Below the pieces are notes generated by a model. It ran no database searches, was not told where the DNA came from, and saw only the letters and a list, made by a program, of their open reading frames with translations. A stretch of DNA of 64,000 bases from Eledone cirrhosa (lineage: Eukaryota): the NCBI GenBank assembly GCA_964016885.1, contig OZ024763.1:30566001-30630000 (forward strand). The letters are read 5' to 3'. Positions 16,085 through 18,110 of the stretch are shown here, in pieces; position 1 is the stretch's first letter; the number at the start of each line of letters is the position of its first letter. Both the position numbers and the translations under genes were made by a program.

Positions 16085-16510
16085 TTCCTTGGTCTTCCTC
16101 TACTGCAGCCTTCTTCCTCAGGGATTACTCGACACTACTTCACCCAGTGATCATCATCCATATGAATCACATGTCCATACCAATGCAGTCTCCTCTCATG
16201 CACACTGCCTCTGATTCCTCCGATACCCAGTTTCTAATGATAAAGCATGAATGAACTGAGGGAGGAACTGGGTATAAGAGGAATCAGATGTAGGTGCAGG
16301 AGAGGAGACTGTGTTGGTATGGACATGTGATATGCATGGATGATGATTACTGGGTGAAGAAGTGCCAAGTAATCCCAGTAGAAGAAAGACACAGTAGAGG
16401 AAGACCATGAAAATCATGGGCTGAGGTGGTGAGAGCTGATCTCAGATCGCTGAAGCTCACAGAGGAGACCAAGGAAGACCTGGATGGAAGTGGTGAAAGC
16501 TGATCTCAGA
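16085..16510. mobile_element. Two RTE fragments in inverted, head-to-head arrangement
   Basis: 16085-16235 is the diverged reverse complement of ~16265-16410. Confidence 0.75.
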
Positions 16511-16544: not shown

Positions 16545-18110
16545 TTGACTACGAAATTGGAAAGTAGGTTTATAAAGATTAATTTTCACTGTACTTTCAA
16601 GGTTGTCTCTGTGGTCTAGTGGTAAGATTGCTGGGGCCTAGAGTTAGGATTCAATATTGGCTAAGGTTGATGTTTACCAGCCATTTTTTAACTACCAAAT
16701 TGGAAAGTAGGTTTATAAAGGTTAATTTTCACTTGACCTTCAAGGCAGTCTCTGTGGTCTAGTGGTAAGATATGTGGGCTTGCTGGGGCCTAGGTTTAGG
16801 GTTCAATCTCTGCTAGGGTTGATATTTGGCAGCTTATGTTTTTTTAACTGCCAAAATGGAAAGTAAGTTTATAAAGATCAATTTTCAGTTAATCTTCAAG
16901 GTGGTCTCTGTGGTCTTGTGGTAAGATGTGTGGGGTTCCAGAGATCTTGATTTAGGGTTCAATCTTATCTTTGGCTGATTTTTGGCAGCCATTTCTTTTT
17001 AACTACCAAAATGGAAAGTAAGTTTATAAAGATCAATTTTCAGAGCATCTATATAGCAGTCTGTGGTCTTGTGGTAAGATGTGTGGTGTTCCAGAGATCT
17101 TGATTTAGGGTTCAATCTTATCTTTGGTTGATAATTGGCAGCCAGTTCTTTTTAACTACCAAATTGGAAAGTAAGTTTATAAAGATCAATTTTCAGAGCA
17201 TCTATATAGCAGTCTCTGTGGTCTTGTGGTAAGATGTGTGGTGTTCCAGAGATCTTGATTTAGGGTTCAATCTTATCTTTGGTTGATAATTGGCAGCCAG
17301 TTCTTTTTAACTACCAAATTGGAAAGTAAGTTTATAAAGATCAATTTTCAGAGCATCTATATAGCAGTCTCTGTGGTCTTGTGGTAAGATGTGTGGTGTT
17401 CCAGAGATCTTGATTTAGGGTTCAATCTTATCTTTGGTTGATAATTGGCAGCCATTTCTTTTTAACTACCAAATTGGAAAGTAAGTTTATAAAGATCAAT
17501 TTTCAGAGCATCTATATAGCAGTCTCTGTGGTCTAGTGGTAAGAGGTGTGGATTGCTGAGATGTTGATTTAGGATTCAATAGCTAAGGTTCATGTTGGGT
17601 TGTCATCTTTTAACTACCAAAATAGAAAGTTAAGTTTATAAAGATCAATTTTCACTTAATTTTCAAGTCAGTCCCTGTGGTCTAGTGGTAAGATATATGG
17701 GATTGTAGAGACCTAGATTTAGGGTTCGATCTTGGGTTGAATTTTTTGCAGCCATATATTTTTAACCATTAAATTGGAAAGTAGGTTTATAAGGATCAAT
17801 TTTCAGATAATTTTCGAGGCTGTCTCTGTGGTCAAGTGGTAAGATGTGAGGGGTTCCAGAGACTAACTTTTGCTAGGGTTGATGTTTGGCAGCCATTTTT
17901 TAAACTACGAAATTGGAAAGTAGGTTTATAAAGATTAATTTCAGTGCACTTTCAAGGCGGTCTAGTGGTAAGATATGTGGGATTACTGATACCTTGGTTT
18001 TGGGTTCCATCTCTGCTAGGGTTGATGTTTGGTTGCCATTTTTTTTTAATCATTAAATTGGAAAGTAGGTTTATAAAGATTAATTTTCACTGTAATTTTA
18101 AGGCAGTCAC
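16545..18110 (+). ncRNA. Tandem array (~155-bp period, 10 units plus a partial) of tRNA-like Pol III units
   Basis: Each unit has TTTATAAA ~30 nt upstream, then GTCTCTG-TGGTCT(A/T)GTGG (A box), GG(G/A)TTC(A/G)ATC-type B box (absent in unit 9) and a T-run. Unit starts 16605, 16748, 16904, 17059, 17212, 17367, 17522, 17671, 17822, ~17959. Confidence 0.7.

Follow-up and report, generated by a model that had tools for sequence, protein, structure and literature searches.

The tandem array at positions 16549-18110 of the window, by which we mean the whole 64-kb stretch of DNA analysed, is best explained as one cluster of a family of mini-genes that, judged from sequence matches, numbers at least 600. 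These genes are likely derived from tRNA genes, likely templates from which RNA polymerase III (Pol III) makes RNAs of 80-100 nt other than tRNAs, and likely maintained chiefly for their promoter; we assign this combined reading a probability of about 0.6. The promoter signals are far better conserved than spacer and RNA body, and copies without a promoter begin at the predicted start site, so the units are likely to be read by Pol III.

The proposed mechanism follows type 2 promoters as described in the available text of PMC12409998 and PMC7279448. TFIIIC would bind the A and B boxes and set TFIIIB on the TATA element, and Pol III would start 30 nt downstream of TATA and stop at the T-run. 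In the predicted RNA fold, a 5' stem closes a D hairpin and a long T-loop hairpin comes after it. The difference in conservation between boxes and RNA body suggests that selection acts mostly on promoter occupancy or transcription and weakly on RNA shape. Occupied promoters might keep local chromatin open or act as a barrier, by analogy with tRNA genes, for which such a role is given in the excerpts available from PMC12409998. The genes have spread as DNA, in tandem and inverted arrays and by hAT-like capture, with occasional RNA-derived copies.

Anatomy of the array

The array comprises ten head-to-tail units and an eleventh, promoter-only stub, all on the + strand, and is far beyond chance. 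The first-pass annotation had reported ten units of ~155 bp, and both figures hold: TRF returned a period of 155 with 84% matches, and successive spacings are 143, 156, 155, 153, 155, 155, 149, 151, 139 and 145 bp. The gap from terminator to next TATA is only ~45 nt. A TATA element lies 30 nt ahead of the predicted start (+1) in 11/11 copies, stub included. Among the full units, the A box is present in 10/10, the B box in 9/10 (deleted in unit 9) and a run of at least four T in 10/10, again as had been described, and this is a type 2 Pol III layout with TATA upstream. When a profile was made from the units, each full unit scored 119-157 bits and nothing else in the window matched at E<=1. Pairwise likeness is 98-99% among units 4-6 and ~74-90% among the others, with units 8 and 9 merged in that comparison. 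Short-read contigs from one DNA sample matched pieces of the array without a differing letter; the sample is probably the same as that of the assembly, and the match is therefore not independent.

Three units are intact: unit 2 (16703-16845; TATA 16714, +1 16744, A box 16755, B box 16800, T-run 16839), unit 5 (17167-17308; TATA 17178, +1 17208, A box 17219, B box 17264, T-run 17304) and unit 6 (17322-17463; TATA 17333, +1 17363, A box 17374, B box 17419, T-run 17459). The other seven of the ten carry a deletion or an early T-run. Unit 1 (16560-16689; upstream element 16560, TATA 16571, predicted +1 16601, A box 16612, B box 16648, T-run 16684) has a deletion between the D hairpin and the B box. 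Unit 4 (17014-17153; TATA 17025, +1 17055, A box 17064, B box 17109, T-run 17149) has a 2-nt deletion ahead of its A box, and unit 10 (17916-18047; TATA 17927, A box 17958, variant B box 18003, T-run 18039) one immediately 5' of the A box. Small deletions are found in unit 7 (17477-17611; TATA 17488, +1 17518, A box 17529, variant B box 17573, 4-T run 17608). The T-run comes early in unit 3 (16859-17000; TATA 16870, +1 16900, A box 16911, B box 16956, early T-run 16979, second T-run 16996) and in unit 8 (17626-17763; TATA 17637, +1 17667, A box 17678, B box 17723, early T-run 17742), and because of these two the predicted RNA length ranges over ~79-100 nt. Unit 9 (17777-17901; TATA 17788, +1 17818, A box 17829, T-run 17896), with its B box deleted and a TATA 8-mer that is one base off, is likely inactive. 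The stub (18061-18110) holds the upstream element and TATA (18072) and ends ~8 nt past the predicted +1. Just upstream of the array, positions 16159-16337 form a long imperfect hairpin made of two inverted copies of a common repeat, with spurious sub-cut-off matches to plant miRNAs.

A dispersed family and its carrier transposon

A genome-wide search with the unit, as the first-pass annotation had suggested, gave 75 matches with two units as query. The 26-nt upstream element had 599 exact matches in the genome, compared with 0 for its reversed control, and a pattern covering the A-box region had 591. The window's own D-arm type is restricted to 26 exact matches. A total of 201 unique units in 37 clusters were taken from 62 sources for comparison. 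The earlier proposal of a clustered family of non-coding RNAs stands as far as the small-RNA-gene layout is concerned, but it overlooked that the array belongs, as a single cluster, to a large family dispersed in the genome and also borne by a hAT-like transposon. Searches of the literature on octopus and other cephalopods and on transposon-borne tRNA, a coverage outside which most subscription papers lie, returned no description of the family, nor do the accessible parts of PMC4233971 and PMC4758252 describe one.

The units occur in three layouts: head-to-tail arrays (the window array, C27, C22), alternating inverted arrays (C18, C26, C3) and convergent pairs within a hAT-like element that bears terminal inverted repeats. 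Arrays are short, with 1-13 units in the loci examined, and scattered. Tandem duplication with unit birth and death, as in the window, inverted arrays and transposon capture show that the genes spread as DNA; RNA-derived copies appear, from their junctions, to be occasional only. The upstream element is weakly palindromic by eye, and its reading as a recombinase site was considered. Extra gene-less copies of the upstream TATA element sit at the head-to-head junctions of an inverted array (L021:2500-4100), and a short GC-rich repeat recurs directly beside family units or array ends in unrelated loci (L025, L026, L036, L037, L240).

The left end of the carrier element has 197 exact matches genome-wide. 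Both ends were found within ~6 kb at 28 of 40 fetched loci, with a unit between them at 10. A target-site duplication of 8 bp is a hAT hallmark; 14 of the 28 two-ended loci have one with 7-8/8 matching positions, many of these being trivial in TA runs and 5 lying in complex flanks. In its terminal inverted repeats and 8-bp duplications the carrier resembles non-autonomous hAT transposons, but it differs in holding a convergent pair of Pol III units. The majority of the copies picked by their A box are of this hAT-borne type. The window array itself does not lie inside such an element, as no matching ends were found and its flanks are unrelated common repeats. In a 1.7-kb tandem repeat at C1:441186189-441227599 (L114-L120), one family unit and the left portion of the hAT-like element have been amplified together with a tRNA-Ser gene.

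Promoter conservation and likely traces of past transcription

Conservation covers the three promoter elements and the distances between them, in contrast to a drifting RNA body. Across 58 non-redundant copies with a mean identity of 60%, the majority letter has a frequency of 0.88 in the TATA element, 0.89 in the A box and 0.85 in the B box versus 0.55-0.77 elsewhere, and the TATA-to-A-box spacing is identical in 47 of 53 non-redundant copies. Of the 201 unique units, the anchored alignment used the 152 whose boxes are intact, and 4 of its 29 clusters were left out as mis-anchored. The majority lines of 25 subfamilies differ from one another by 0.18 in the TATA element, 0.21 in the A box and 0.11 in the B box, versus 0.44-0.50 in spacer and RNA body. 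The window subfamily behaves likewise, deviating by 0.08, 0.02 and 0.04 in the three elements and by 0.30 in the spacer. The earlier statement that the boxes are better kept than the spacers is thereby borne out both family-wide and between subfamilies. The distance of the TATA element is that of the genome's U6 and tRNA-Sec genes, in which it lies 30-31 nt before the start.

Because some loci had been picked by the upstream motif, the comparison was repeated on 24 pairs picked by transposon end only. Private changes in these pairs are depleted in the TATA element (21/1201 versus 143/3209 in the interior, p 1e-5) and in the A box (10/468, p 0.018); the depletion in the B box of the transposon copies (9/355, p 0.10) was not significant. 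With all deviations counted, shared ones included, the transposon copies show no better preservation of their A and B boxes than of the unit middle. Transcription-associated mutagenesis of the variable spacer, an idea taken from the available portion of PMC6130373, was unsupported: private changes there number 22/545 against 143/3209 in the interior (p 0.74), and the spacer changes have no clear strand bias.

Duplication at the DNA level retains the upstream flank of a gene, and RNA-mediated copying loses it exactly at the start site. Among 70 copies picked by their A-box region, 66 have the upstream element; the remaining 4 all start no more than a few bases away from the predicted +1. The element is likewise kept in 25 of the 26 window-type matches, the exception (L033) starting at +1 within a simple-repeat tract and matching window unit 2, its nearest sampled relative, at 75/82 positions. 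At locus L217 the copy continues into a SINE body and lies between the two copies of a 19-bp duplication (1 mismatch), the left one of which ends at the start; by sequence, it bears a chimeric retrocopy's signature. The alignment of L216 extends from +1 as far as the terminator, and the 5' junction of L240 is ambiguous because it adjoins another repeat. The chance that five random breakpoints among ~37 positions, one for each of the five promoter-less copies, would all land no more than 3 nt from +1 was roughly estimated by hand at about 2 in 10,000. These junctions are indirect evidence of past germline RNA of the family, the window subfamily included, and say nothing of the present activity of the window array.

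Competing explanations and known systems

The RNA itself may be the selected product, for instance a structured tRNA mimic that binds a host protein or serves as a decoy, like 4.5SH or snaR, with copy number acting as dosage; we consider this rather unlikely. In the predicted fold, which the preferred explanation shares, +2..+9 pair with the strand that holds the start of the supposed anticodon loop and so close the D hairpin, the T loop being part of a separate hairpin of 10 pairs. In favour of the RNA as product, pairing in the 5' stem is 82%, compared with 40-56% when slid, and the D stem is kept with different letters, with 4/4 pairs in 13 and 3/4 in 11 of 25 subfamilies. Length differences gather mostly in one linker, the two flanking blocks holding their spacing, and RNA-derived copies exist. 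Overall, 71.4% of cells are paired in the two-hairpin fold versus 69.0% in shuffles (1/500), with covariation at 5/500 and pairing of 33-50% when slid; the fold was derived from the same sequences on which it was tested, and related sequences alone can reach such values in 5-25% of cases. Pair-keeping transitions in the 5' stem outnumber pair-breaking ones by 33 to 7 across subfamilies (column counts, not independent), and unpaired columns show part of the same bias (0.225 versus 0.158). A 5'-3' terminal stem was seen by eye in the window subfamily.

Other properties of the RNA argue against its being the selected product. The body differs between subfamilies as much as the untranscribed spacer does, and 3' ends and lengths vary from one subfamily to another. 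RNAalifold gave no consensus pairs, and no single helix did better than column shuffles at the subfamily level (p 0.08, 0.34, 0.82). Folding energy is weak, with a mean z of -0.29 versus -0.17 for the antisense strand in the 66 of 122 non-redundant units that entered the test. We regard the two-hairpin fold as a plausible model with modest support.

Somewhat less probable again is that the units are selfish or neutral cargo, their promoter having been kept only in past source copies whose Pol III activity aided spread, so that present copies, the window array included, are decaying and have no host function. The prevalence of hAT-borne copies, the many damaged units and the decay of the A and B boxes of transposon copies at the rate of the unit middle, all changes counted, would fit such a history, as would the similar tRNA-containing tandem repeats of amphibians (in the text available from PMC10702118). 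The depletion of private changes in the TATA element and A box speaks against it, and the window subfamily lies outside the transposon yet has kept its boxes. This explanation agrees with the preferred one, maintenance mainly for the promoter, on everything except host benefit.

The first-pass annotation had also offered a TFIIIC-bound boundary array. A boundary of the ETC type, independent of transcription, is very unlikely. Such sites act as barriers but are without TFIIIB and Pol III according to the excerpts available from PMC12409998, and a TFIIIC-only boundary is made less likely here because few parts are kept as well as the upstream TATA element, with its spacing, and because copies lacking the promoter begin at +1. 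In favour of a boundary, the B box varies less between subfamilies than any other part, and 11 of 32 array loci lie within the outer 5% of the half-contig, a hand-picked and partly duplicated set that is not independent. The window array is 0.10 Mb from its contig end. The last 10 kb of the contig contain no telomere repeats, so 'subtelomeric' means only near a contig end.

It has a negligible probability that the units are tRNA genes, functional or edited, bearing several anticodons, or that they encode vault RNA: they have a tRNA-like D arm and T loop, but ARAGORN found 0 genes in the window and 0 in 15 related loci, Rfam gave no gathering-score match in the window and, at E<=10, no match over the array, the cloverleaf fitted to 59 diverse copies aligned by sequence alone pairs 54.1% of positions versus 54.0% in shuffles (238/500), and real tRNA genes and vault genes, the latter without a match to the family, are found elsewhere in the genome. 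The set of 59 is alignment A1, drawn from 122 non-redundant units.

The same results uphold the earlier view that the units are not functional tRNAs. The ten loop-position 7-mers that it had listed are all in place, but they are no variable anticodon, since in 10/10 units the flanking stem has 0-3/5 pairs; the first four bases of the 7-mer belong instead to the strand that pairs with the 5' end (6-7/8 pairs in 8/10 units). Cytosolic tRNA genes were rejected for the lack of a cloverleaf, of a detector match and of an anticodon stem. Likeness to tRNA is weak, with z 5.7 for His, up to 4.5 for Glu and Ser, and up to 3.7 for SINE heads. The comparison of parents sampled His, Glu, Ser, Thr and Sec only, with His best, the RF00005 search scored 63 candidates only, and a broad pattern gave mostly a SINE head. 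The ancestry is likely tRNA-like on this evidence, with no parent singled out among the sampled types.

Vault RNA genes (RF00006) resemble the family in their length of ~90-100 nt, upstream TATA and clustered copies. However, the family has no RF00006 match and does not match the genome's own vault genes, for which 14 over-cut-off matches all lie in a separate cluster on C3; the family profile reached a best E of 1.9 there, with z of 0.0 and -1.1. A type 3 gene was rejected since the PSE-like element common to U6 and tRNA-Sec was not seen, by eye, upstream of family units. The units are not SINEs either, given the retention of the upstream element in 66/70 and 25/26 copies and scores of at most 10.9 bits against three sampled SINE heads, and the earlier distinction between the units and the heads of the window's SINEs agrees with this.

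By analogy, the family is best read as a lineage-specific set of Pol III small-RNA genes that may work like rodent 4.5SH/4.5SI or primate snaR and that is a member of none of the systems compared. According to the available text of PMC7279448 and PMC10137851, rodent 4.5SH and 4.5SI are lineage-restricted and have A and B boxes with a TATA-like box at -31/-24; the ancestor of 4.5SI was a tRNA-type element, and 4.5SH exists as hundreds of gene copies in tandem. The boxes and the upstream TATA are shared with our family, but 4.5SH units measure 4-5 kb and 4.5SI has three genes, whereas the family units are ~155 bp and fall into dozens of diverged subfamilies. Unlike the rodent genes, the family also has inverted arrays and DNA-transposon carriage, and no parent SINE was found for it. 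Primate snaR, as portrayed in the accessible part of PMC3045588, is likewise a fast-evolving Pol III small-RNA family spread mostly by DNA duplication, but it is derived from Alu/7SL and moved by segmental duplication, whereas the present family resembles tRNA and is both larger and more deeply diverged. Newt PolIII/TAN, Xenopus OAX, Rana/polIII and Hy/polIII are tandem repeats that contain tRNA-related sequence and have no matching SINE, and PolIII/TAN is transcribed in vitro (available sections of PMC10702118). These amphibian repeats are abundant tandem families with units of ~200-360 nt where a length is given, in contrast to the short, scattered arrays described here, for which promoter-specific conservation is shown.

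A bolder picture, offered tentatively and more apt to be wrong than right, is of an octopod class of hundreds to thousands of refolded tRNA-derived Pol III genes, in which the former anticodon arm would pair with the 5' leader to give a two-hairpin RNA. A DNA transposon would have captured a face-to-face pair and sown functional Pol III sites throughout the genome, to serve as mobile chromatin barriers or to supply an abundant tRNA-mimic RNA. If transcribed, the family would be a large unannotated part of the Pol III transcriptome of its host, a likely cephalopod and, judged from its SINE types, likely an octopod, and this part is invisible to tRNA finders and Rfam. It would also represent a tRNA-like gene that lost its cloverleaf while keeping its promoter, and a case in which Pol III promoters were dispersed by a cut-and-paste transposon. 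Since both intact and broken copies occur naturally, in three layouts, selection on Pol III occupancy can be tested against selection on the RNA.

Several other Pol III gene clusters and tRNA-like elements were noted in the same genome. Two types of vault RNA gene, at least 14 genes in all, score over the Rfam cut-off in the region C3:221183987-221251257 (L057-L066), each with an upstream TATA-like stretch, and the literature consulted on octopus vault RNA does not describe this cluster. A dispersed, near-perfect tRNA-like element with common up- and downstream flanks occurs on several chromosomes (L043, L045-L053) with a varying anticodon (called Ala, Val, Thr, Asp), and is likely the tRNA cargo of another mobile element. 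Real tRNA-Thr genes are clustered at C1:243.65-243.68 Mb (L042, L044, L133, L134) with a spacing down to ~150 bp, near the array period. Long tandem arrays of U6 genes (C19:31780605-31840331, ~1.8-kb period) and of tRNA-Glu genes (C3:277.24-277.40 Mb, ~1.34-kb period) were also observed.
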